Source of the DNA: an uncultured Bacteroidales bacterium
GTDB lineage: Bacteria > Bacteroidota > Bacteroidia > Bacteroidales > S143-33
Assembly (NCBI GenBank): GCA_964637235.1
Contig: CAZWVR010000004.1
Location: forward strand, 1-49,112
Length of the DNA stretch: 49,112 nucleotides
Reading direction: 5' to 3'
The position numbers and the translations under genes were made by a program. Below the pieces are notes generated by a model. That model searched no databases. It was not told where the DNA came from and saw nothing but the letters and a program-made list of their open reading frames with translations. Shown one piece after another: positions 15,226 through 34,513 of the stretch; the stretch's first letter is position 1; every line of letters begins with the position of its first letter.

Positions 15226-15622
15226 GGGGCTGACGTGGATTTGACAGCAGATAGGGTTGTCTACCTGCATGCCGGGGTAGGTAAGCGTCCCGTAAAAATC
15301 GCTTACAGAACAAATAAGTGCCAACGAAGGTACATATGCTCTCGCTGCCTAATTAGGCTATAACCGACCACCGGAATGGTGGCGGAGCGAGCATCCCGGC
15401 AAGTGAGGTTCGCCTGTACCGAGCTTGCCAATGGGGTGTCATAGAAAAAACAGGCTGGTGCAGATGTGCCGCGTCATCTGCACGAGATTTCAAATCGCGG
15501 CTGTGGAGACGGCTATGGGTGCGCTTCCGACCCGGTCGCCTCCGAGAACAAACAGGAAGCTAAGCATGTAGACGGTAGGCAGCCCGTCTGTTTGGACCGG
15601 GGTTCGACTCCCCGCAGCTCCA
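15226..15622 (+). ncRNA. ssrA: transfer-messenger RNA (tmRNA)
   Basis: 5' GGGGCTGACG pairs with 3' CAGCTCC plus discriminator A. There is a tRNA-like T-arm (GGGGTTCGACTCCCC) and the conserved GCTAAGCATGTAGA block. The tag reading frame is 15320-15352: GCC AAC GAA GGT ACA TAT GCT CTC GCT GCC TAA = ANEGTYALAA*. Confidence 0.93.
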
Positions 15623-15636
15623 CTAAAAACCTGAGT

Positions 15637-18159: not shown

Positions 18160-21100
18160 ATGCTTATGAAACGGAATTTCTCTTACTTTTGGATGCTGAT
18201 TTTTTTAATTTTTTCATTTGCCGCAATGAAAAGTGAGGCACAGAATGATAATTGGGCATCATTAATGCAAGACCCGACGGCAAATGTCTATAAGGCTAAA
18301 CAAGCCTTTGATAATTATTACAAACATTTTGATCCTACAAAGGAAGTAGAAGAGGACTTTGGGAAAAAAGCCGATGAATTTGAAGCAGATTTTGAGCCTT
18401 ATTCAATTTTTAACCGTTGGTTTAATTTTATGGCTCCTCGTGTTTATCCAACAGGTGAAAGATTTCCCTCTGCAAAACTCTATTACGAATATCAACGTTA
18501 TTTAAAATCAAATCCACAAACGAAAGCCTCTGCTAACTGGACATTTTTAGGTCCTACTCACCCAACAGGATATACTCATAACGGTAATTATAAATCTCCC
18601 GGTGGTAGTGGGCGTGTAAATGCTATCACAGTTGACCCGACAAATTCAAATATTATTTGGGTAGGAACACCTGCTGGTGGGCTCTGGAAATCTACTGACG
18701 GCGGGCAAAACTGGACACTCATTTCTGACCAGTTTACTGTTATGGGAGTCTCCGCTATTGTGATTGACCCCGATAACACAAATATAATGTATATAGGCAC
18801 AGGAGACCGCGACGCTGGCGATACCCATTCTGTTGGTGTTTGGAAATCTACTGACGGCGGACAAACTTGGCAACCTACATCTGTTAGTTTTAGCGAACAT
18901 CAGAACGCCCGTTGTACCAAAATTTTGATGAATCCGCAGAACCATAACATAATGCTTGCATCTTTTAATGGTGTTGTTTACAGAACTACTGACGGATTTG
19001 CTACTAAAACCGCTGTTTTGCAAGATCTTATTTGGGACATGGAGTTTAATCCTTCTAATCCCAATATTGTTTATGCCGCAGGAACAAAATTTTATAAATC
19101 TACCGACGGAGGTCAAACTTGGACTCAAATAACTTCCGGTATCCCTTCCTCTCATGTTCAAAGAATGGAAATAGCTGTCTCTCCTGCTGAACCTAATAGT
19201 GTATGGCTATTAGTTGGTAGAGATAGAACTTACAGATTTGATTTTTACGGTTTGTATAAATCTACTAATGCTGGAAGCAGCTTTTCAACTGTATATGATT
19301 ACCATGATGGCAATCTTTTAGGATGGGACCCCGATGCAGCACCTGCTTCCTCTGGAAATAAAGGTGGACAGTCTTTCTATGATTTATCCTTGGCAGTTAA
19401 TCCTTCAAATCCTAATATAATTTTTGTTGGCGGTGTAAATCTTTATCGTTCTACAAATGGTGGTAGTTCATGGACTTGCTCTGCTTATTGGTTGGAAGGT
19501 GCTGGATATAGCTATGCTCACGCTGACTATCACGCATTGACTTATGTAAATTCTACAACCCTATACGCAGGTAATGACGGCGGTATCTTTGTTTCAACAG
19601 ACAATGGAGACTCTTGGACAGATATTTGTAATAATTTAGGAATAGCACAAGTGGCTCGTATTGGTGTTTCTGCTACTAATCCTAATTTGATATTAGCTGG
19701 TATGCAAGATAACGGAACAAATAAATTTGACGGCTCTACTTGGAGAATTATATATGGTGGCGATGGTTGCGAAGCTATTGTAGATCCCACAGATGACAAC
19801 ACTCTTTATGCTTCATACGTCTATGGTGCTTTATATCGTTCTACTGATGGCGGTAATTCTTGGACTTCTATAAAAGCAACATCCTCAGAACAGGGTGCTT
19901 GGATAACTCCTTATGTAATGGATCCTACTGACCATAATACCCTATATGCAGGTTATGAAAATGTTTATAAAACTACTAATGCCGGTTATTCTTGGACGCG
20001 TTTGGGATATGCTTATGGAAGTGGTCAAATAATAGAACTTGAAGTTGCTCCTTCTGATCCTAATTATATCTACTACATAAAACAGTATTGGGACGGCAGT
20101 TCGCTACATTATTATGTAGGTATGACAAACGATGGCGGAAATTCTTGGCATAATATCGGTGAAGGTTTACCTATTGACCAAGCTGCTCCTACTTCAATAG
20201 CAATCTCTGCTGATAACCCCCAGAAAGTTTGGATAACATTTTCTGGATATGTTGATGGTGTAAAAGTATATAAAACCGAGGACGCTGGTCAGACTTGGAC
20301 TAACTACTCTGATGGATTGCCGAATTTCCCTATGAATGCTATCGTATATCAGAAAGGCTCTAATGATGCCCTTTATGTTGGAGGTGATATTGGCGTTTAT
20401 TATCGTGATAATTCTATGAGCTCTTGGGCTAATTACAGTAATGGTTTGCCGCATACAGTTGTTAAAGAACTGGAAATTTATTATGACGAGGCAAATCCTC
20501 AAAATAGCCGTTTGCGTGCTGCAATGTATGGACGTAGTGTCTGGGAAACTCCTTTGGCTACTACTTCTACAATTTGTTATACTCCTACAAATCTTAGTGC
20601 AGAGCAAATAACTTCTTCTACGGCTAAACTCTCTTGGAACCCGGTATCTGGCGCTCAAAGTTATGACGTTAGATATAAAGCTGTTTCTGCTTCTGATTGG
20701 ACTGTCCAAAATACTACCAATGCTTATTTAAACGTAGGTGGTCTTTCTTTGAACGATACAGAGTACGAATTTCAGGTGAGAACAAATTGCCCTGATGGTA
20801 ATTCCTCTGCTTATTCCGATTCTTATCATTTTGGTTATGTGCCACCAACTTATTGCTCTTCCAGTGGTAATAACTCCTCTGACGAATGGATAAATGCTTT
20901 CAGTTTGCAAGATATTAACAATACTTCCGGAAATAACAACGGATATGGCGATTTTACTAATCTTTCAACTGATTTAGGACGAGGAAGTTCTTATAATTTC
21001 ACAATAGATCCTGCTTGGAGAGATAATATTTATTCCGAAGGATATGCTATTTGGATAGACTTTAATAAAGACGGTGATTTTGACGATCCTGGCGAGCAAG

Positions 21101-24100
21101 TATTTTCTCAATCTCCTACACAAAATGACCCTATAACCGGAACCATTACAATACCTTCTGATGCTCCATTGGGACAAACTCGCTTGCGTGTAGTTTTGAA
21201 ATACAATGCCGTTCCTGACCCATGCGGTTCTTATGAGTACGGCGAAACAGAGGATTATACTGTAAACATTATTGATGCTGTTGATAATCAGCCTCCTACT
21301 GCTCCTACAAATTTGACTGCTTCTAATGTTTCTAATAATAGTGTTGATTTATCTTGGAATGCTTCTTCTGACAACGTAGGCGTTGTAGGCTATTATGTAT
21401 ATAAAAATGGGCAACGTATCACAAACACAACAAATACCTCTATAACAGTATCAGGACTTCAAGCAAATACAACATATGACTTCTACGTTACTGCTTACGA
21501 TGCCCAAAATAACGAGTCTGATGGTAGTAATGTTGTAGAAGTAACAACTCAACCAGATCCAGATAGTATCCCTCCATCTGCACCAACTAATTTGGCTTAT
21601 TCAAATGTCACTCAGTTGAGTGTTGATCTTTCTTGGGAGGCTTCTTCTGATAATGTGGGAGTAGAAGGATACAGAATTTATAAAGACGACGCTTATATCG
21701 CTTCAACCTCTAATACAAGCTACACTGTAAACGGTTTGTCAGCTGGAACTACATATCAATTTTATGTTAAAGCTTATGATGCAGCTGGAAATCTTTCTGA
21801 CCCAAGTAATACCGTGACAGTTACAACTCAGCAACCTGATGTCAGCTACTGCGAATCAAAAGGTAAAAATTCATCAGAGGAATGGATAGATAGAGTTGTT
21901 GTAGGAGATTTAGATCATTCATCAGGTAATAATGGTGGTTATGCAGATTTTACAAATTATGTCGCTAAAATTTATACAAATAATCCAACAGATATAACAA
22001 TATATCCTGCTTGGTCTGGAACAGTATATTCCGAAGGTTATGCTGTATGGATAGACTTTAATCACGATGGTGATTTTGATGATCCTGGCGAACAGGTGTT
22101 CTCTCATGATCCTACACAGGATAGTCCTATAACTGGTTCATTTACAGTGCCTAATTCTGTTCAGACAGGACAAACAAGAATGAGAATTTCTTTGAAATAT
22201 AATGGAATACCAACACCTTGCGAAACCTTTGATTGGGGAGAAGTTGAAGATTATACCGTTGATATCCAAAATGGCGGAGATTTAACACCTCCTTCTGCTC
22301 CTTCAAATCTTTCAGCTTCAAATATTACTTCAACAAGTGTTAAACTCTCATGGATCGCTTCTACTGATAATGTAGGCGTAGATGGATATAAAATTTATAA
22401 AGATGGCTCATTATTGACTAATACTACTGGAACTTCATATACTGTTAATGGTTTGTCTCCTTCTACAACTTATCAATTCTATGTAGTAGCTTATGATGCC
22501 GCAGGTAATACTTCTGATCCAAGTAATACAATTTCTGTAACAACACTTGAAGAAGAGGATACCCAAGCTCCTACTGCTCCTACAAATTTGACTTATTCAA
22601 ATGTTACAGCAACATCTGTAAATCTTGCTTGGGACGCTTCCTCTGATAATAAAGGCGTTCAAGATTATTTGATATTTAAAGACGGAAGTCTTGAAGGAAC
22701 AACAGCAAATACTTATTACACAGTTTCAGGACTTTCCCCCAATACTACTTATCAGTTCTATGTAAAAGCCAGAGATGCTGCTGGTAATGTTTCTGACCCA
22801 AGTAATACAGTGAATGTAACCACTTCAACGTCAGTTAGTTATTGTTCTTCATCTGGTGAAAATGCTTCCGAGGAATGGATCGATAGAGTTGTATGTGGCT
22901 CTATTGATAATCAGTCTGGGTCAAATGGCGGTTATGCAGACTTTACAAATCTTTCTACCTCAATGCCGCAAGGAACAAATCAAACTATTACGGTTTATCC
23001 TGCTTGGTCTGGTTCTGTTTATAACGAAGCTGTTGCTGTATGGATAGACTGGAACCAAGATGGAGACTTTAACGATAATGGAGAACTTGTATTTACCAGT
23101 GAACCTTCTACAACTTCTCCTGTTAGCGGAACATTTACTGTTCCAGCAAGTGCTTTGACAGGAACAACTCGTATGCGTGTATCTATGAAATATAACGATA
23201 TACCAGATCCTTGCGAAACGTTCCAGTACGGAGAAGTTGAGGATTATACAGTTAGTGTTTCCGCTACTAATGATACACAAGCTCCTACTGCTCCAAGCAA
23301 TTTGCATGCAGATAATATAACACAAACAACCGTTGACCTCTATTGGGATGCTTCCAGTGATGATGTGGGAGTCGCTAAATATAACATATATAAAAACGGT
23401 AGTTTATTGGGATATGTACAATCAACATCTGCACATATTACTGGACTCTCCGCAGGAACAACTTATGAGTTTTACGTTACTGCTTTGGATGCCGCAGGTA
23501 ATGAATCCTCTGCAAGTAATACTATAAATGTGACTACCGAAGCTGCTTCTACTCAGTATTGTAGTTCAAAAGGTAATAATGCAACAGAGGAATGGATAAA
23601 GCGTGTTGTTTTAGGTTCTATTGATAACACTTCTGGACAAGATGGCGGTTATGGAGATTATACAAATTTGAGCACTTCTCTTACGCGTGGTAATACATAT
23701 ACCTTATATGTCGTTCCTGAATGGGCAGGCACTGTATATAAAGAAGCTTATGCCGCTTGGATAGATTATAATCAAGATGGTGATTTTGATGATATAAATG
23801 AGCAAATATTCTCCCATTCAGCAACTACTGACTCTTATGTATATGGCTCATTTACAGTGCCTACGAGTGCAGCTTTGGGTAGCACAAGAATGCGTGTATC
23901 TATGGAATATAATGCAATACCCGCTGCGTGCGGCAATTTCTCTTATGGTGAAGTTGAAGACTATACAGTAATTATTTCATCATCAAAAGATGCAGTTAGT
24001 TCAGTAGCTACAAATAAAAACATTAACATTTATCCTAATCCAGCTACTCAGACAGTTAATTTTGTTATGGATAATACAGGAGATTACGTAGTCTATCTAT

Positions 24101-24246
24101 ATAACTCTACTGGTCAGATAGTTAAGAGTTTAAGAGTTTCTTCTGATATAATTCGTTTGAATGTTTCGGAACTTGCTTCTGGGATATATAATGTCAGAAT
24201 TGTTGGAAATAATGCGGTTTATACTGGCACATTTATAAAACAATGA
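18160..24246 (+). CDS. 2028-aa T9SS cargo protein: BNR/Asp-box (sortilin/VPS10-like) propeller, FN3 domains, GEVED domains and a C-terminal T9SS sorting domain
   Basis: Signal peptide. About 10 Asp-box motifs (KSTDGGQNW, KSTDGGQTW, RSTNGGSSW, VSTDNGDSW, and others) between nt ~18580 and 20560. Six FN3-like units. Four units end in GE(V/T)EDYTV. The C-terminus (NIYPNPATQTVNFV...GIYNVRIV...TGTFIKQ) is typical of a type A T9SS CTD. Confidence 0.85.
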   Translation: MLMKRNFSYFWMLIFLIFSFAAMKSEAQNDNWASLMQDPTANVYKAKQAFDNYYKHFDPTKEVEEDFGKKADEFEADFEPYSIFNRWFNFMAPRVYPTGERFPSAKLYYEYQRYLKSNPQTKASANWTFLGPTHPTGYTHNGNYKSPGGSGRVNAITVDPTNSNIIWVGTPAGGLWKSTDGGQNWTLISDQFTVMGVSAIVIDPDNTNIMYIGTGDRDAGDTHSVGVWKSTDGGQTWQPTSVSFSEHQNARCTKILMNPQNHNIMLASFNGVVYRTTDGFATKTAVLQDLIWDMEFNPSNPNIVYAAGTKFYKSTDGGQTWTQITSGIPSSHVQRMEIAVSPAEPNSVWLLVGRDRTYRFDFYGLYKSTNAGSSFSTVYDYHDGNLLGWDPDAAPASSGNKGGQSFYDLSLAVNPSNPNIIFVGGVNLYRSTNGGSSWTCSAYWLEGAGYSYAHADYHALTYVNSTTLYAGNDGGIFVSTDNGDSWTDICNNLGIAQVARIGVSATNPNLILAGMQDNGTNKFDGSTWRIIYGGDGCEAIVDPTDDNTLYASYVYGALYRSTDGGNSWTSIKATSSEQGAWITPYVMDPTDHNTLYAGYENVYKTTNAGYSWTRLGYAYGSGQIIELEVAPSDPNYIYYIKQYWDGSSLHYYVGMTNDGGNSWHNIGEGLPIDQAAPTSIAISADNPQKVWITFSGYVDGVKVYKTEDAGQTWTNYSDGLPNFPMNAIVYQKGSNDALYVGGDIGVYYRDNSMSSWANYSNGLPHTVVKELEIYYDEANPQNSRLRAAMYGRSVWETPLATTSTICYTPTNLSAEQITSSTAKLSWNPVSGAQSYDVRYKAVSASDWTVQNTTNAYLNVGGLSLNDTEYEFQVRTNCPDGNSSAYSDSYHFGYVPPTYCSSSGNNSSDEWINAFSLQDINNTSGNNNGYGDFTNLSTDLGRGSSYNFTIDPAWRDNIYSEGYAIWIDFNKDGDFDDPGEQVFSQSPTQNDPITGTITIPSDAPLGQTRLRVVLKYNAVPDPCGSYEYGETEDYTVNIIDAVDNQPPTAPTNLTASNVSNNSVDLSWNASSDNVGVVGYYVYKNGQRITNTTNTSITVSGLQANTTYDFYVTAYDAQNNESDGSNVVEVTTQPDPDSIPPSAPTNLAYSNVTQLSVDLSWEASSDNVGVEGYRIYKDDAYIASTSNTSYTVNGLSAGTTYQFYVKAYDAAGNLSDPSNTVTVTTQQPDVSYCESKGKNSSEEWIDRVVVGDLDHSSGNNGGYADFTNYVAKIYTNNPTDITIYPAWSGTVYSEGYAVWIDFNHDGDFDDPGEQVFSHDPTQDSPITGSFTVPNSVQTGQTRMRISLKYNGIPTPCETFDWGEVEDYTVDIQNGGDLTPPSAPSNLSASNITSTSVKLSWIASTDNVGVDGYKIYKDGSLLTNTTGTSYTVNGLSPSTTYQFYVVAYDAAGNTSDPSNTISVTTLEEEDTQAPTAPTNLTYSNVTATSVNLAWDASSDNKGVQDYLIFKDGSLEGTTANTYYTVSGLSPNTTYQFYVKARDAAGNVSDPSNTVNVTTSTSVSYCSSSGENASEEWIDRVVCGSIDNQSGSNGGYADFTNLSTSMPQGTNQTITVYPAWSGSVYNEAVAVWIDWNQDGDFNDNGELVFTSEPSTTSPVSGTFTVPASALTGTTRMRVSMKYNDIPDPCETFQYGEVEDYTVSVSATNDTQAPTAPSNLHADNITQTTVDLYWDASSDDVGVAKYNIYKNGSLLGYVQSTSAHITGLSAGTTYEFYVTALDAAGNESSASNTINVTTEAASTQYCSSKGNNATEEWIKRVVLGSIDNTSGQDGGYGDYTNLSTSLTRGNTYTLYVVPEWAGTVYKEAYAAWIDYNQDGDFDDINEQIFSHSATTDSYVYGSFTVPTSAALGSTRMRVSMEYNAIPAACGNFSYGEVEDYTVIISSSKDAVSSVATNKNINIYPNPATQTVNFVMDNTGDYVVYLYNSTGQIVKSLRVSSDIIRLNVSELASGIYNVRIVGNNAVYTGTFIKQ
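20851..23975 (+). repeat. intragenic modular repeats: GEVED1, FN3 x2, GEVED2, FN3 x2, GEVED3, FN3, GEVED4
   Basis: GEVED units: ~20851-21270, 21841-22269, 22837-23260, 23554-23975. FN3 units: ~21292-21552, 21571-21830, 22288-22548, 22567-22824, 23281-23540. Some nucleotide strings recur exactly, for example cctactgctcctacaaatttgact at ~21295 and ~22570. Confidence 0.8.
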
Positions 24247-25975: not shown

Positions 25976-26226
25976 GCGTTAGGGCGGAGGCGGGTTAGAC
26001 GGTGCGCAGCGAGCGTATGGAGGCGTTTGCGGGCGGAGGCTGAGCGATGGAGCGAAGCCCCACGCACCGCAAAGCGAGGCGAGGCTTAGGTGGGCGTGCT
26101 GTCAGACTAAGGCTGCTGCCGCCCACCTTGCCGAGCCGAGTAATTACGCCTCCTCAGCGAGCAAGCACCGGATACAAGCCGTAGCCCGACCTGTTGCCGC
26201 TGAAAAGCGAGCAACAGGGAACGCCC
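25976..26226. repeat. GC-rich ~250-nt noncoding element, copy A (reverse-complement orientation relative to copy B)
   Basis: This is a sharp island of G+C in AT-rich DNA. It begins GCGTTAGGGCGGAGG and ends GGGAACGCCC. The core at 26026-26081 is near-identical to the reverse complement of 33198-33252. Internal hairpins lie at 26190-26218 (8 bp + 4 bp with a GAAA loop) and 26088-26128. Confidence 0.85.
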
Positions 26227-26247
26227 TTAAATATAAAAAATATAAAA

Positions 26248-27303
26248 ATGGAAAAATTAAGTCATCAGGTATTTTTCTCAGAGAATATTAAGGAGGATTT
26301 GCGTTTGTGGCGGAATAAATATTTAGGTAAAAAAGTTTTTGTAATAACCGATTACAATACACAAAAGTATTGTTTGCCAAAGCTTAGCGAGGCATTGGAG
26401 CCTTTTTATCACTATTCTATATCTGCTGGTGAAGTTTATAAAAATATCAACACGGCGATTGATTTGTGGCGTTTTTTATCTAAAAACCTCGCAGACCGTG
26501 AGAGTATAGTTGTGAATTTAGGTGGTGGTGTGGTTTCAGACTTAGGAGGTTTTGTTGCTTCTACTTTTAAACGTGGTGTAAAATTTATAAATGTTCCGAC
26601 TACTCTTTTGGCACAGGTTGATGCTGCTATTGGGGGGAAAACAGGAATAAATTTGGATTATCTGAAAAATGAGGTAGGAACTTTTGCTAAGCCTGAGGCG
26701 GTATTTATTGCGCCGGAGTTTTTGGAGACTCTCCCAGAACGTGATTTTATAGCCGGCTATGCGGAAATTGTTAAATATGCTTTAATAAGTAGCCCGGAAA
26801 TGTGGGAGGAGGTAAAGCGTTCAATGACTATTGAAATGAATATGAAAAATTTAAGTCAGATTATAAGGAAATCAGTGGAGATTAAATTGAAAATAGTTGA
26901 AAAAGACCCTTATGAGCGGGATTTGCGTAAAATTCTTAATTTCGGGCATACTTTTGGACATGCTTTTGAGACGTTTTTTAAACTTAAAGGTATTGATATA
27001 TTGCATGGTGAAGCAGTAGCTATGGGTATTATTTGTGAAATATATTTATCAAATCAGCGTTTTGTGTTTGATTTTCAGAGGGTTTTTGAAATTAGTGAAG
27101 TAATATCAAAGTTTTTCCCGACCTATCGTATTCAATATAAAGATTATGATGAAATATATGAAATCATGCTTCATGATAAAAAGAATTCTTCTGGTGAAAT
27201 TCATTTTACATTGTTGAAGGATATAGGTGATGTGGCTATAAATCAAGTAGTTGAAAAATCTGATATTTATGAGGCTCTAAATTTTTATTCTCAAATACGA
27301 TAA
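26248..27303 (+). CDS. aroB: 3-dehydroquinate synthase
   Basis: The motifs NLGGGVVSDLGGFVASTFKRGVKFINVPTTLLAQVDAAIGGKTGIN and FGHTFGHAFE are diagnostic. The start is set at the ATG at 26248 (MEKLSHQ), because the ORF-track start at 26194 lies inside the GC-rich element. Confidence 0.9.
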   Translation: MEKLSHQVFFSENIKEDLRLWRNKYLGKKVFVITDYNTQKYCLPKLSEALEPFYHYSISAGEVYKNINTAIDLWRFLSKNLADRESIVVNLGGGVVSDLGGFVASTFKRGVKFINVPTTLLAQVDAAIGGKTGINLDYLKNEVGTFAKPEAVFIAPEFLETLPERDFIAGYAEIVKYALISSPEMWEEVKRSMTIEMNMKNLSQIIRKSVEIKLKIVEKDPYERDLRKILNFGHTFGHAFETFFKLKGIDILHGEAVAMGIICEIYLSNQRFVFDFQRVFEISEVISKFFPTYRIQYKDYDEIYEIMLHDKKNSSGEIHFTLLKDIGDVAINQVVEKSDIYEALNFYSQIR

Positions 27304-31658: not shown

Positions 31659-33041
31659 ATGAAAAAACTTAGTTTTTTCCTGATAAGCTTGGCTTTTTTC
31701 TATTGTCTTGTCTCTGATGTATATGCTCAGGGAGATTCTAATGCTCTGCAAATAACAGGCTATTTAATGTCTGACCAGAGAATACTTACTGATAATGCTA
31801 AATGGTTCTGGAATGAAAATCGCCTGAATATAGCAATGGACAAAAAATTATCCGGAGCATTGGATTTTCATACTCAATTGTGGATTAGAAATATTGGCTT
31901 TCCTTCTGTTCATAATTTGAATATGCTATCTAATAAGCATAATATCAATTATTTAGATTTGGAACTTAGGGAGTTTTATGTTAAAGTATATAATTTTTTA
32001 GTGCCAAATTTGGATATGACCATAGGTCGTCAGATAATAGAATGGGGCACTGCTGATAAAATTAATCCAACAAGTAATGTTTCTCCCTATGATTATGAAG
32101 ATATTTTGGATTTTGGGCGTAAGCGGGGTAATGAAGCTCTGAATTTAGTTTATACTTTTGGGAAAAATAAAGATTTTTATTTACAAGGAATATGGGAGCC
32201 ATTTTTCCGCCCTGATAATTTGCCTATATATCCTTATTCACAGCTATTGAGTTTTTCTCCTAAAAGTTTACCTGCAATGTCTCTATTAGCTTATTCAGAT
32301 TCGTTAATTATGCCTTCGTATTCTCTTAAAAATTCTATTGCTGCATTTAAATTAAAAGGATTTGCTTTTGGCACAGATTGGTCATTGAGCTATATTTATA
32401 CATTTGACGGTTTGCCTATGCCTTATCAGGCTGATTACTATATGATAAGTCCGAATACTTTGAATTTGAATTTAAAAATGACTTATTATCGTGAACATAT
32501 TATTGGAGCGGATTTTTCAACAAATATATTTGGTGCCGGATTCTGGGGAGAAGCTGCCGCTTTTATCCCAAAAAAGGATGTGTCTTTTTCAGCATTTTTG
32601 CATACACCAAATCCAATTATGCCATTACAAAAACTTGCAGATAGTATTATTTTGCAAAAAAATAAACCTTTTTTTAAATACGTAGTAGGTTTTGATTATA
32701 ACTTTCCTTATGATTTTTATATTCATCTGCAATATGTTCACGGTTTTACTTTCGAGAGAGGAGCAGATAATCTAAATGATTATTTTTTCTTTAATCTTGA
32801 TAAATCTTTATTTTATGGCAAATTGAAGCTTAGTCCTGCTACTGTGGCATTTATCGTAAATGATTGGAATGATATCGCTAATAATTATGTTTTTGCTTAT
32901 TTTCCGAGCTTGGTTTATAAGCCTGTGGAGGATTTAGAACTGAATTTATCTGGTGCTTATATAACTGCTAAGGGAGATCAAATATTTGCTAAATTGAAAG
33001 ATTGGAATATGGTGCAGTTTCGTGTTAAATATTATTTTTAA
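31659..33041 (+). CDS. putative outer-membrane beta-barrel (DUF1302-like)
   Basis: 460-aa ORF with a signal peptide. It has a GRQIIEWGTADKINPT motif like DUF1302-type barrels, alternating aromatic/polar strands and a C-terminal aromatic residue (..VKYYF). Confidence 0.5.
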   Translation: MKKLSFFLISLAFFYCLVSDVYAQGDSNALQITGYLMSDQRILTDNAKWFWNENRLNIAMDKKLSGALDFHTQLWIRNIGFPSVHNLNMLSNKHNINYLDLELREFYVKVYNFLVPNLDMTIGRQIIEWGTADKINPTSNVSPYDYEDILDFGRKRGNEALNLVYTFGKNKDFYLQGIWEPFFRPDNLPIYPYSQLLSFSPKSLPAMSLLAYSDSLIMPSYSLKNSIAAFKLKGFAFGTDWSLSYIYTFDGLPMPYQADYYMISPNTLNLNLKMTYYREHIIGADFSTNIFGAGFWGEAAAFIPKKDVSFSAFLHTPNPIMPLQKLADSIILQKNKPFFKYVVGFDYNFPYDFYIHLQYVHGFTFERGADNLNDYFFFNLDKSLFYGKLKLSPATVAFIVNDWNDIANNYVFAYFPSLVYKPVEDLELNLSGAYITAKGDQIFAKLKDWNMVQFRVKYYF

Positions 33042-33046
33042 TTTTT

Positions 33047-33302
33047 GGGCGTTCCCGCCGCTGACGCAAAACCCTCGCTACGGCGGTCGGGTGCTCCGCT
33101 TATATTCGGCTGTGGCTCGCAGGTGGCACTAATTCGCTCGGCTCATTAAGGCGGAACGGCAGCAGGCTGACGCCTGTCAGCACGTCCGCCTAAAATTCGC
33201 CTCGCTTTGCGGTGCGTGGGGCTTCGCTCTACGCTCAGCCTCCGCCCGCAAAGTGCCACAATTCTGCTCGCCTTCGCCTCATATCGCTTCGCCCCCTAAC
33301 GC
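33047..33302. repeat. GC-rich ~250-nt noncoding element, copy B
   Basis: It begins GGGCGTTCCC and ends CCCCCTAACGC, which are the reverse complements of the ends of copy A. The core at 33198-33252 matches copy A. Hairpins lie at 33055-33086, 33149-33191 and 33166-33181 (GCTGAC-GCCT-GTCAGC). It fills the gap between convergent genes. Confidence 0.85.
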
Positions 33303-33312
33303 AGAACATACA

Positions 33313-34389
33313 TTAAAATTTATACACTATTGCATTAATGTTCATACCTGCCCCTATTGAGGTAAATACTGCGTAATCACCTTCTTTGAGTGTATGACCT
33401 TCCATTTTACCACGAAGTATTAAATCTAACATTGTTGGTATTGTAGCCACTGAGGAATTTCCAAGCCATCCTATGGTCATTGGCATTATTTCCGGTGGAA
33501 ATGTCTTATATCCATATAATCTAAATAGTCTTTTTACTATTGCACTGTCCATCTTTTCATTTGCCTGATGAATTAGTATTTTTTTTATTTTTTCTAATGG
33601 AACACCGGCTTTATCAATAGCTTTTTTTACAACATCTGGAACATTCTTTAATGCATATTCATATACTTTATGACCGTGCATCTTGGTGAAAAAATTATGC
33701 TCCCCTTTATAATCAGGATTTAATGAATGATTATTGTATATATAAAATGCTTCATTATAGGCATCATTGCGTGTTTGATGGGAGACTATTCCTATCGGTT
33801 CTTCACTTTCTACAGCTTCTAAAATTGTTGCACCCGAACCATCTGCAAATATCATTGAATCTCTATCGTGTGGATCCATAAAATAGGATAAAACTTCTGC
33901 TCCTATGATAAGTGCTCGTTTTACCTCGCCGGATTTTATATAGTAATTAGCTATTGTCATTGCTAATATCCAACCCGGGCAGCCAAAAACTACGTCATAA
34001 GGTATACAGTATGGATTTTTTATGCCTAAATAATGTTTTACTCTTGCTGCAAGGGCTGGAACCATATCTGAATGTCTATTTTGATCTGCATCTCCGTAAT
34101 TGTGAGCTAAAATAATTAAATCTATACTCTCCGGATCAATACCTGCATTTTCTATAGCTTTACGTGCTGCTTCTGTGGATATATCTGAATTTTTTTTACC
34201 TTCTTCCACATAGCGCCGTTCTTTTATTCCTGTTATCTCGTAAAATTTTTGTATCGTCTCCTCAGGAGATTTTTCTATCCGTTTACCGTATGTTTCAAAA
34301 AAATCATTGTTTATAAAATCTTCGTTTTTTATTACTCGCGGGGCTATATAACTACCAGTTCCGATAATTTTTGAATAGATTTGTGCCAT
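33313..34389 (-). CDS. beta-ketoacyl-ACP synthase III family protein (FabH-like)
   Basis: The catalytic triad context is present: FGCPGW (Cys), IHQANEKM (His), GNSSVATIP (Asn). The start is set at the ATG at 34389 (MAQIYSKIIGTGSY) rather than 34440. Confidence 0.8.
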   Translation of the reverse strand: MAQIYSKIIGTGSYIAPRVIKNEDFINNDFFETYGKRIEKSPEETIQKFYEITGIKERRYVEEGKKNSDISTEAARKAIENAGIDPESIDLIILAHNYGDADQNRHSDMVPALAARVKHYLGIKNPYCIPYDVVFGCPGWILAMTIANYYIKSGEVKRALIIGAEVLSYFMDPHDRDSMIFADGSGATILEAVESEEPIGIVSHQTRNDAYNEAFYIYNNHSLNPDYKGEHNFFTKMHGHKVYEYALKNVPDVVKKAIDKAGVPLEKIKKILIHQANEKMDSAIVKRLFRLYGYKTFPPEIMPMTIGWLGNSSVATIPTMLDLILRGKMEGHTLKEGDYAVFTSIGAGMNINAIVYKF

Positions 34390-34513
34390 AACAGAAGTTT
34401 TTGATTGCCAAAGGTATAAAAAAAAATATTTTCTAAACATTTTTCTGATTACTGATCTCTCTTTTTTTATGATTTTATCAAAATTTTTTTGGAAATAACA
34501 GGCTTTTTATTTT

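Follow-up and report, generated by a model that had tools for sequence, protein, structure and literature searches.

A G+C-rich intergenic island in an AT-rich Bacteroidales-related genome belongs to a lineage-specific repeat family with a conserved branched fold

Why does an island of 251 nt with 65.3% G+C stand between two genes of a genome that is otherwise only one-third G+C? The question is raised by positions 25976-26226 (+) of a 49,112-nt stretch of DNA from an uncultured Bacteroidales bacterium (assembly GCA_964637235.1, contig CAZWVR010000004.1, positions 1 to 49,112; the whole stretch is called the window here), in which the island, copy A below, lies between an hslR-type gene and aroB against a window average of 32.8% G+C. 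An earlier note, made from the letters of the window, had described it as a GC-rich noncoding element of some 250 nt, and its composition is as described: elsewhere in the 49 kb, G+C islands are confined to the tmRNA gene (15226-15625) and a second copy of the element itself, which lies 6.8 kb away in the opposite orientation, just where the note had placed it (copy B, 33047-33302 (-)). Comparison of the copies shows the island to be one member of a lineage-specific, multi-copy, non-coding element that has not previously been described and whose + strand fold is under selection. As to what the fold does, we lean, with slightly better than even confidence, toward a reading in which the ~250-nt interspersed repeats are co-transcribed with their neighbors, are selected as an RNA fold and serve as a decay barrier or processing module.

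Copy A begins with GCGTTAGGG and ends with GGGAACGCCC. Folded as RNA, its + strand reaches -141.3 kcal/mol versus -104.7 +/- 5.0 for 200 dinucleotide shuffles (z = -7.4; 0/200 as good), and its minus strand gives z = -5.6. Two of the local structures proposed earlier are present to the letter: the hairpin at 26190-26218 (CCTGTTGC-CGCT-GAAA-AGCG-A-GCAACAGG, 8+4 bp, GAAA loop) is part of the minimum-energy structure, and the pairing of 26088-26096 with 26120-26128 (AGGTGGGCG / CGCCCACCT) proves to be the best covarying helix of the repeat family. The palindrome GTAATTAC that had been pointed out exists as well, but at 26140-26147, one base from its proposed place; it is incidental, because it is not conserved in the other copies. 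The open reading frame (ORF) that starts at 26194 is, as had been suspected, an artefactual upstream extension of aroB, whose true ATG is at 26248, and ARAGORN finds no tRNA in copy A, in keeping with the reported lack of a cloverleaf. Nor does the island belong to a named RNA family, at gathering or permissive thresholds: across the whole window at the gathering threshold, Rfam 15, whose models include 6S, HEARO, group II intron domains, self-cleaving ribozymes, Flavo-1 and Dictyoglomi-1, matches the tmRNA alone; copy A with 75 nt on either side, searched at E <= 10, yields only chance lncRNA and snoRNA matches far under threshold and none of the known ribozyme families; and six further loci searched at E <= 1 have no match.

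A 20-mer from the core that is invariant between copies A and B, scanned over a set of 185,579 species genomes (one genome per species), gave one true match and three chance matches, and a 19-mer scan of JGI metagenomes gave 24 loci, 14 of them true copies. All 14 come from Ga0256833, which also holds a contig of the window's own organism, and the match in the genome set is one of these same 14 (L001 = L035, JALSPS010000032.1 / Ga0256833_1019813; L numbers identify loci). Together with the two in the window they make 16 distinct loci with differing AT-rich flanks. Retrieval by exact 19-mer leaves decayed or divergent copies invisible. The element measures 241-306 nt across copies and occurs about once per 25 kb in the window; against a covariance model of the family, R1, introduced below, full-length copies score 163-265 bits, with copy A matching over its full length (245.8 bits, E = 4e-58) and copy B (256 nt, 63% G+C) scoring 182.3 bits (E = 1e-42). 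Both window copies recur with the same flanks in an independent ENA assembly, copy A identical and copy B with 4 differences. Between L010:4139-4395 and window 33047-33302, copy B accounts for 4 of the 12 differences that 7.1 kb contain, a density some tenfold above the local rate. Gene conversion among the copies could be behind this, as could mixing during assembly inside the repeat; all four are loop or bulge changes or A-U to G-U changes, and they are too few to weigh. Short-read contigs of the same organism (L009, L011 and L012) end inside the element, as assemblies commonly do at repeats.

A scan of viral contigs returned only chance matches, in GC-rich contigs; blastn of the element against plasmids and phages found no match; and the four closest relatives (ParE 80-85% and AroB 53-61% identical to the window proteins), represented by ~93 kb of non-redundant sequence, show no R1 match at E <= 10 and no comparable island, where about four copies would be expected at the density of the window. 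The repeat family therefore looks restricted to this lineage. The 3.9-kb contig of L001 = L035 is placed in a 'Candidatus Kaiserbacteria' metagenome-assembled genome (MAG) used as species representative; it encodes a protein whose C-terminus resembles, by eye, a type IX secretion system sorting domain, and it is probably mis-binned. A related MAG (GCA_054012595.1, JBPLSI010000086.1; ParE 80% identical) carries a 790-nt intergenic region with ~15 short G+C-rich hairpins (L043:16100-16680; for example GACGGCGTAGCCGTC, GCGGCGATTGATATCGCCGC and GAACCGCTACGCGGTTC), in which ARAGORN finds no tRNA and model R1 no match; it looks like a hairpin array of the REP/BIME kind, and G+C-rich hairpin repeats may be a trait of the whole lineage.

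Folded individually, all 14 full-length copies converge on one Y-shaped architecture: its ends are closed by a 5-bp helix (P1), its long outer arm runs up to a junction from which two hairpins (H1 and H2) branch off, and near the 3' end it has a variable hairpin; the consensus comprises 81 base pairs and two branch points. RNAalifold, applied to plain MAFFT alignments, finds compensatory changes at 28/59 pairs with 13 sequences and at 38/81 pairs with 9. R1 was built from the 9-sequence alignment and all copies were then re-aligned to it; in that alignment 95.5% of 1331 paired cells are standard pairs and 44/81 pairs have changed on both sides, none of 500 shuffles reaches any of five measures, and sliding the partners by 1-3 columns lowers pairing to 28-40%. 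This alignment is fitted to the model, and the unfitted MAFFT-based counts agree with it. Since the full-length copies are only 55-82% identical in pairs, the comparison indicates that the fold has been kept by compensatory substitutions while the copies diverged, and hence that the + strand fold is under selection. The conserved structure that the earlier note had thought possible is thus upheld by covariation, and neither a lack of such structure nor a match to Rfam or to an insertion sequence (IS), any of which the note would have taken to undo its proposal, was found.

In copy A, P1 pairs 25976-25980 (GCGUU) with 26220-26224 (AACGC, followed by CC), forms in the minimum-energy fold and covaries among copies, reading GCGAG/CUCGC in L029 and GUGUU/AACAC in L020. 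The outer arm runs from 25982-26026 on its 5' strand to 26146-26187 on its 3' strand, which includes the conserved block GGAUACAAGCCGUAGCCCGAC; its helices of 2-8 bp are separated by loops of the GGA/GUA and GA/GA type, 24 of its 29 pairs (helices 2-7) have changes on both sides, and the same pairing is found in two sequence subfamilies, the second of which includes copy B. At the junction, H1 (26027-26072) is an irregular hairpin, invariant in sequence (UUGCGGGCGGAGGCUGAGCG..AGCGAAGCCCCACGCACCGCAA), that has bulged A's as well as a tandem GA/GA loop, and H2 (26074-26141) is a second long hairpin, GC-GA-GGC-GA-GGC..AGGUGGGCG..loop..CGCCCACCU..GCC-GA-GCC-GA-GU, which includes the helix 26088-26096 / 26120-26128 and in which 12 of 25 pairs (helix 9) have changed on both sides and 96.7% of cells are paired. 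The 3' hairpin (26190-26218 in copy A; helices 10-11) varies in sequence and length, and in other copies consists of G-C helices separated by GA/GA loops, as in CCC-GA-GC-GA-GCUGC...GCAGC-GA-GC-GA-GGG. Mean pairwise identity is highest in H1 (95%), followed by H2 (80%), the arms (58-63%) and the 3' hairpin (51%). Throughout, the helices are short G-C blocks between conserved symmetric purine loops (GA/GA, GGA/GUA and GAA/GGA; GNA/GNA type); because these mismatches are conserved, the element is not a decayed palindrome.

Which strand carries the structure? Paired cells contain 21 G-U and U-G combinations versus 4 A-C and C-A; the unpaired + strand bases are 75% purine (A 47%, G 28%, U 18%, C 7%); and the + strand folds better than the minus strand in 15/16 copies. 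It is therefore the + strand that is structured, be it as RNA or in the form of single-stranded DNA. A search for pseudoknots and tertiary contacts found no supported covarying pair outside the nested fold, and an alternative pairing of 5' UUAGGGC with the 3' GCCCUAA tail was rejected, as by eye it shows no covariation in other copies. There is no sign of coding: no reading frame is conserved, nearly every copy has stops in all three sense frames, and indels between copies are 1-2 nt long, not multiples of three.

This structured strand reads in the sense of the neighboring genes. Where the neighborhood is visible, the downstream gene lies on the same strand in 13/14 copies, with its ATG 13-97 nt away (13-26 nt in eight), and the upstream gene does so in 12/14; no copy is antisense to both neighbors. 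Eleven copies lie between unidirectional genes, one between convergent and two between divergent genes, and all 11 that lie between two same-direction genes are in sense orientation. Copy A follows the stop of the hslR-type gene (S4/Hsp15, Pfam PF01479/PF28601; 25556-25948 (+)) by 27 nt and precedes the ATG of aroB (3-dehydroquinate synthase; 26248-27303 (+)) by 21 nt, a gap that leaves aroB no space for a promoter of its own. Several copies fill the whole spacer in this manner, so that 5-27 nt remain before the element and 13-26 nt after it. Copy B is wedged between two convergent stops, 10 nt past that of a FabH-like gene (ACP_syn_III; 33313-34440 (-)) on its own strand and 5 nt from that of the ORF at 31659-33041. 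Both it and that upstream FabH-like gene are inverted, yet the window's GC skew keeps rising overall, without a change of sign; in this single case, therefore, orientation goes with transcription and not with replication. The checked neighbors of the copies are housekeeping genes without a common function. Those downstream are aroB, secA, def and genes for a galE-like epimerase, an acyl-CoA dehydrogenase, an HAD hydrolase, a saccharopine dehydrogenase and secreted proteins, and in one copy the element is flanked by a thiolase and an acyl-CoA dehydrogenase gene. Upstream of the element, no Bacteroidota-type -7 box (TAnnTTTG) occurs at a fixed distance, and given the spacer-filling copies the downstream genes would therefore be read through the element.

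From this spacing and orientation we infer that the element is co-transcribed with its neighbors as an intercistronic, 5'- or 3'-untranslated segment of mRNA, and we posit that it is selected as an RNA fold within operon transcripts. By analogy with REP/BIME, ERIC and Correia-type repeats, a very stable and self-contained RNA block would most likely stop exonucleases, and the block together with the single-stranded A-tract that follows it would define a processing site; such a site or barrier would uncouple the stability of the upstream and downstream cistrons. The family most likely originated as a mobile or copy-pasted sequence that landed beside A-tracts, and its modules would later have been exchanged between copies by recombination.

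Several points weigh against this proposal. Co-transcription is read off spacing and orientation, and all copies come from a single organism or metagenome. The invariance of H1 is partly an ascertainment effect, the 19-mer used for retrieval having lain in the 3' strand of H1. Predicted pairing of the start region beside the element is not notably low. At L022, the start of a divergent UPF0102 gene is 9 nt away from the element's 5' end, so that this copy would have an antisense transcript running across it or contain a promoter, and at L030 a small terminator-like hairpin with a T-run stands directly upstream and a near-consensus -7 box (TAAATTTC) downstream, so that this copy may lie outside any transcript. 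The sense bias, moreover, could stem from a preference for A-tracts as targets instead of an RNA function, since Bacteroidota start codons are preceded by A-tracts on the sense strand.

This last point leads to the main rival, to which we give about half as much credence or less: the element may be a purely selfish, non-autonomous transposon of the PATE (palindrome-associated transposable element) or REP type that acts at the DNA level, its fold being needed as single-stranded DNA by a transposase encoded elsewhere, and its sense bias the outcome of A-tract insertion followed by purging of harmful insertions, with no RNA function at all. The ends and flanks speak on both sides. The element starts with GCGU(U/G/A)AGGG, the first five bases being paired in P1, and ends with (A/C)ACGCCC, after which A is present in 14/15 copies at +2, 14/15 at +3 and 12/15 at +4; W-A-A-A occurs in 10/15 copies versus 9.8% of comparable sense-strand intergenic positions of the window (P = 1.6e-7). 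The tract (family consensus W-A-A-A-A) reads TTAAA at copy A (26227-26231 (+)) and AAAAA at copy B (33042-33046 (-)), where it is present despite the lack of a following gene on that strand. The tract is either the element's own final segment or an insertion target, and as a conserved, target-like 3' flank it suits a transposon, as does the subterminal hairpin near the 3' end. So do the multi-copy, lineage-restricted distribution, the breaking of contigs at the element and the identity of L022 to copy B over 232 alignment columns at a different locus with different flanks, the last to be taken with caution as L022 ends inside the repeat. Sheared G-A pairs and GNA loops, moreover, are stable in DNA too, as in the d(GCGAAGC) mini-hairpin. 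One copy (L021, 331-583 (-)) has a YhgA-like putative transposase gene (Pfam Transposase_31, E = 8e-33) 186 nt upstream, and the UPF0102 gene beside L022 is UPF0102/NERD nuclease-like; as single cases, both neighbors may be coincidence. Multi-copy covarying motifs are, finally, routinely classed as 'mobile/repeat sequence candidates' (PMC11109978).

Against a selfish origin of this kind, the classical hallmarks of a transposon are all absent. There is no terminal inverted repeat beyond the 5 bp of P1, as the adjoining AGGG and GGGA do not pair with each other; in the flanks of 15 copies no target-site duplication is found save a possible TTAAA/TTAAA at copy A; and positions -1 to -10 show no conservation among 15 copies, so that a 5' flank conserved in the IS200/IS605 manner is missing. 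Among the checked neighbor genes of the copies and in this part of the window, no transposase, TnpA, TnpB, IscB, Y1 REP-associated tyrosine transposase (RAYT) or reverse transcriptase is encoded, except for the YhgA-like one. Copies that are old, at 55-82% identity, are still 95.5% paired with conserved non-Watson-Crick loops, which needs continuing selection on each copy; 65% G+C has been held against the AT pressure of a 33% G+C genome; and in copy B, the one informative case, orientation tracks the gene strand. There are signs of exchange between copies: copy B and L035 share an H2 of 100% identity but have arms that agree at 43-57%, and L013 and L024 match at 89% in the 3' hairpin as against 73-79% elsewhere. 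L035 (496-801 (-)) also bears an AT-rich insertion of ~75 nt in the loop of its 3' hairpin (GGGGGCU...AGCCCCC), either a tolerated expansion or a secondary insertion. The RNA-function and selfish-DNA readings are not mutually exclusive.

An unlikely alternative is that the copies are paralogues of a new functional class of structured RNA, be it a protein-binding scaffold, a self-processing ribozyme or a set of trans-acting RNAs. The large branched fold would fit, as would blocks that are invariant beyond the needs of pairing (H1, the tip of H2 and GGAUACAAGCCGUAGCCCGAC), purine-rich loops typical of functional RNAs, ends joined by P1 as in excisable or processed RNAs, and the lack of an Rfam match; but the element has no promoter or terminator of its own, with flanks down to 5-27 nt, it shows neither pseudoknot or tertiary covariation nor a ribozyme-family match at E = 10, and a high copy number confined to one lineage is unusual for an essential RNA. 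A variant in which a large RNA built from GA motifs, acting as processing ribozyme or protein scaffold, was multiplied by the host across operons is in our estimate similarly doubtful or, at its most generous, a little less so. Very unlikely, but economical, is spread via the element's own RNA, as a SINE-like retroposon (SINE, short interspersed nuclear element) or another transcript-borne mobile RNA copied into DNA at A/T-tracts, which would explain the sense orientation, the selection for the + strand fold, the 3' A-tract, the sharp, flank-independent 5' end and the absence of inverted repeats.

Three further explanations fare worse. A cis-regulatory leader (riboswitch, thermometer or attenuator) of the downstream gene is suggested by the 13/14 copies that lie 13-97 nt before a same-strand start codon, yet is scarcely credible when the downstream genes are of unrelated function, copy B has no same-strand gene downstream, no conserved alternative pairing involves the start region and full-length copies at -117 to -143 kcal/mol would not switch. 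Equally hard to credit is a generic GC-rich transcription terminator repeat, in spite of the many copies that directly follow stop codons and the position of copy B between convergent genes. The termination module that the earlier note had listed among its options, and with it an intrinsic terminator, finds no support: the 3' flank is an A-tract rather than a U-tract, no U-tract follows the structure on either strand, as the 5' flank, which is the 3' side of the other strand, is not T-rich and offers no consistent T-run, and the branched 250-nt fold far exceeds what termination needs; the eight copies with a start codon within 13-26 nt, in apparent operons, leave no promoter space, so that a strong terminator would shut off the genes behind it. 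An assembly artefact or foreign GC-rich DNA without biological unity, to which the metagenomic nature of the data and the 'Candidatus Kaiserbacteria' binning of one copy-bearing contig might point, has a negligible chance given the recurrence of both window copies with the same flanks in the independent assembly and the 16 loci with different AT-rich flanks and covarying sequences.

How, then, does a putative co-transcribed decay barrier or processing module of this make-up compare with known repeats? The earlier suggestion of a dispersed repeat of the REP or MITE (miniature inverted-repeat transposable element) type holds in that the element is small, non-coding and present at 16 loci, and fails in that the classical hallmarks of a MITE or IS end are missing. 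Like REP and BIME sequences, it is intergenic, lies mainly between unidirectional or convergent genes and has a modular, mosaic make-up that suggests evolution by gene conversion. In the work of Newbury and Higgins on malE-malF, REP was reportedly proposed to be a 3' exonuclease barrier in mRNA; to our knowledge, no RAYT gene is associated with the present element. The published account of REPs and bacterial MITEs places most of them between ORFs that are unidirectional or convergent, describes G-T pairing in them and takes them to act as RNA (PMC3733652); the placement and the pairing recur here, in the eleven unidirectional, one convergent and two divergent contexts and in the excess of G-U (21) over A-C (4), G-T/G-U pairing being the sign of a transcribed strand-specific structure (PMC3733652). 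By unit size and tag, in contrast, the element is no REP or BIME: a REP is a single palindrome of 20-40 nt with a GTAG or CGTC tag, whereas the element has 241-306 nt, two branch points and 81 pairs, ends in GCGUN...NACGCCC and carries no tag; its mismatches are conserved GA/GNA loops, and its copies are far more divergent than typical REPs.

ERIC/IRU, Correia/NEMIS, RUP and BOX elements are likewise repeats of 100-250 nt beside genes and co-transcribed with them, and BOX elements are modular too. ERIC and Correia transcripts undergo processing by RNase III and RNase E; both repeats occur in both orientations, whereas the present element is almost always in sense. The repeats of this group are long imperfect palindromes with terminal inverted repeats, while the terminal complementarity of the element amounts to 5 bp; Correia and RUP have target duplications, which the element lacks; its fold includes junctions and non-canonical loops that are conserved, and a blastn search of plasmids and phages shows no sequence similarity to repeats of the ERIC/Correia type. 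What the analogy supplies is a precedent, since robust folds of such repeats stabilize or destabilize neighboring mRNA (PMC3733652). On balance the family would seem to work most like transcribed repeats of the REP/ERIC type, although it is built differently and oriented more strictly.

A screen of G+C-rich intergenic regions found 250 multi-copy covarying 'mobile/repeat sequence candidates' in 50 genomes (Narunsky et al. 2024, PMC11109978), with dozens of copies per genome and a presumed selfish function. Because such screens find many motifs of this sort (PMC11109978), the general kind, a multi-copy covarying G+C-rich intergenic motif, is therefore not rare. Motifs such as MRSC-65-2 share with the element the manner of their discovery, as long G+C-rich intergenic regions of AT-rich genomes, and the strong covariation, but MRSC-65-2 is a single long stem that occurs in many phyla, sometimes beside transposases, whereas the element is branched and confined to one lineage, and the category is partly defined by inconsistent orientation, whereas the element is consistently oriented.

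Among mobile systems, PATEs of the IS200/IS605 group, the omega or right-end RNAs (reRNAs) of TnpB and the omega RNA of IscB, which is HEARO, resemble the element in having strand-specific structured ends of 150-300 nt, no inverted repeats, no target duplication and one conserved flank. A PATE or TnpB/IscB scaffold was nevertheless rejected: no target or target-adjacent motif (TAM) of 4-5 nt lies 5' of the left end, the conserved flank being 3' of the structured strand instead; the local subterminal hairpin is present at the 3' end only; and the checked neighbors include no adjoining tnpA, tnpB or iscB, nor is there a HEARO match. Also rejected were a classical DDE-derived MITE or IS end, for want of terminal inverted repeats of 10-40 bp, a target duplication and a conserved 5' flank; a group II intron (for example of class C, which inserts after terminators), a type bounded by 5' GUGYG and 3' AY and bearing a domain V hairpin with the catalytic AGC, as there is no Rfam intron match, the first and last five bases are mutually paired and the ~250-nt consensus holds no 34-nt hairpin like domain V; and an integron attC, which is 57-141 nt long versus ~250 nt here and whose core sites, 5' RYYYAAC and GTTRRRY 3', pair with each other, as GTTAGGG at the 5' end and GGGAAC at the 3' end stand in the wrong order and the ends are not complementary beyond GCGTT/AACGC.

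The host is, judged by its proteins, an AT-rich bacterium related to Bacteroidales: AroB has a best match at 61% identity, with named relatives at ~45% from Bacteroidales, Chlorobiota and Sunxiuqinia, and ParE reaches 85% identity with MAGs and 73% with Tenuifilum. Thermophily, which the G+C content of the tmRNA had suggested, was rejected as an unsupported cause of the high G+C content, the proteome indices being mesophilic (F(IVYWREL) = 0.389, which predicts ~29 C; CvP = 0.011); thus 65% G+C is far above what folding should need in this organism. The tmRNA gene of the window (15226-15625 (+); Rfam 169 bits, tag peptide ANEGTYALAA) has 56% G+C in the 33% G+C genome. The sole coding stretch of the window with elevated G+C (~40%) is a 2028-aa ORF (18160-24246 (+)) with internal direct DNA repeats at spacings of 996/993, 717 and 279 nt and 60-80% identity, whose S-T-D-G-G-Q-N-W motifs suggest BNR/Asp-box repeats. 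On another contig (P0122, ENA, 12.9 kb), the ParE homologue has 836 aa versus ~613 and is 67% identical overall; its extra ~220 aa could be an intein or another insertion.

If our reading of the island holds, the intergenic spacers of a little-known Bacteroidota lineage are taken up by a repeat with the behavior of REP or ERIC sequences but another build, in which G-C helices and tandem G-A pairs make up a branched rod of 250 nt, almost always in sense. It would amount to a new category of biology only if RNA-borne mobility or a ribozyme proved true. The family would serve as a marker that explains why assemblies of this organism fragment, and its compact, extremely stable and self-insulating RNA module would be a candidate stabilizer or insulator of synthetic mRNAs in Bacteroidota, where such tools are scarce. 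It would also offer a clean natural case in which to set an RNA-level benefit of dispersed repeats, through operon punctuation and differential mRNA stability, against their selfishness.

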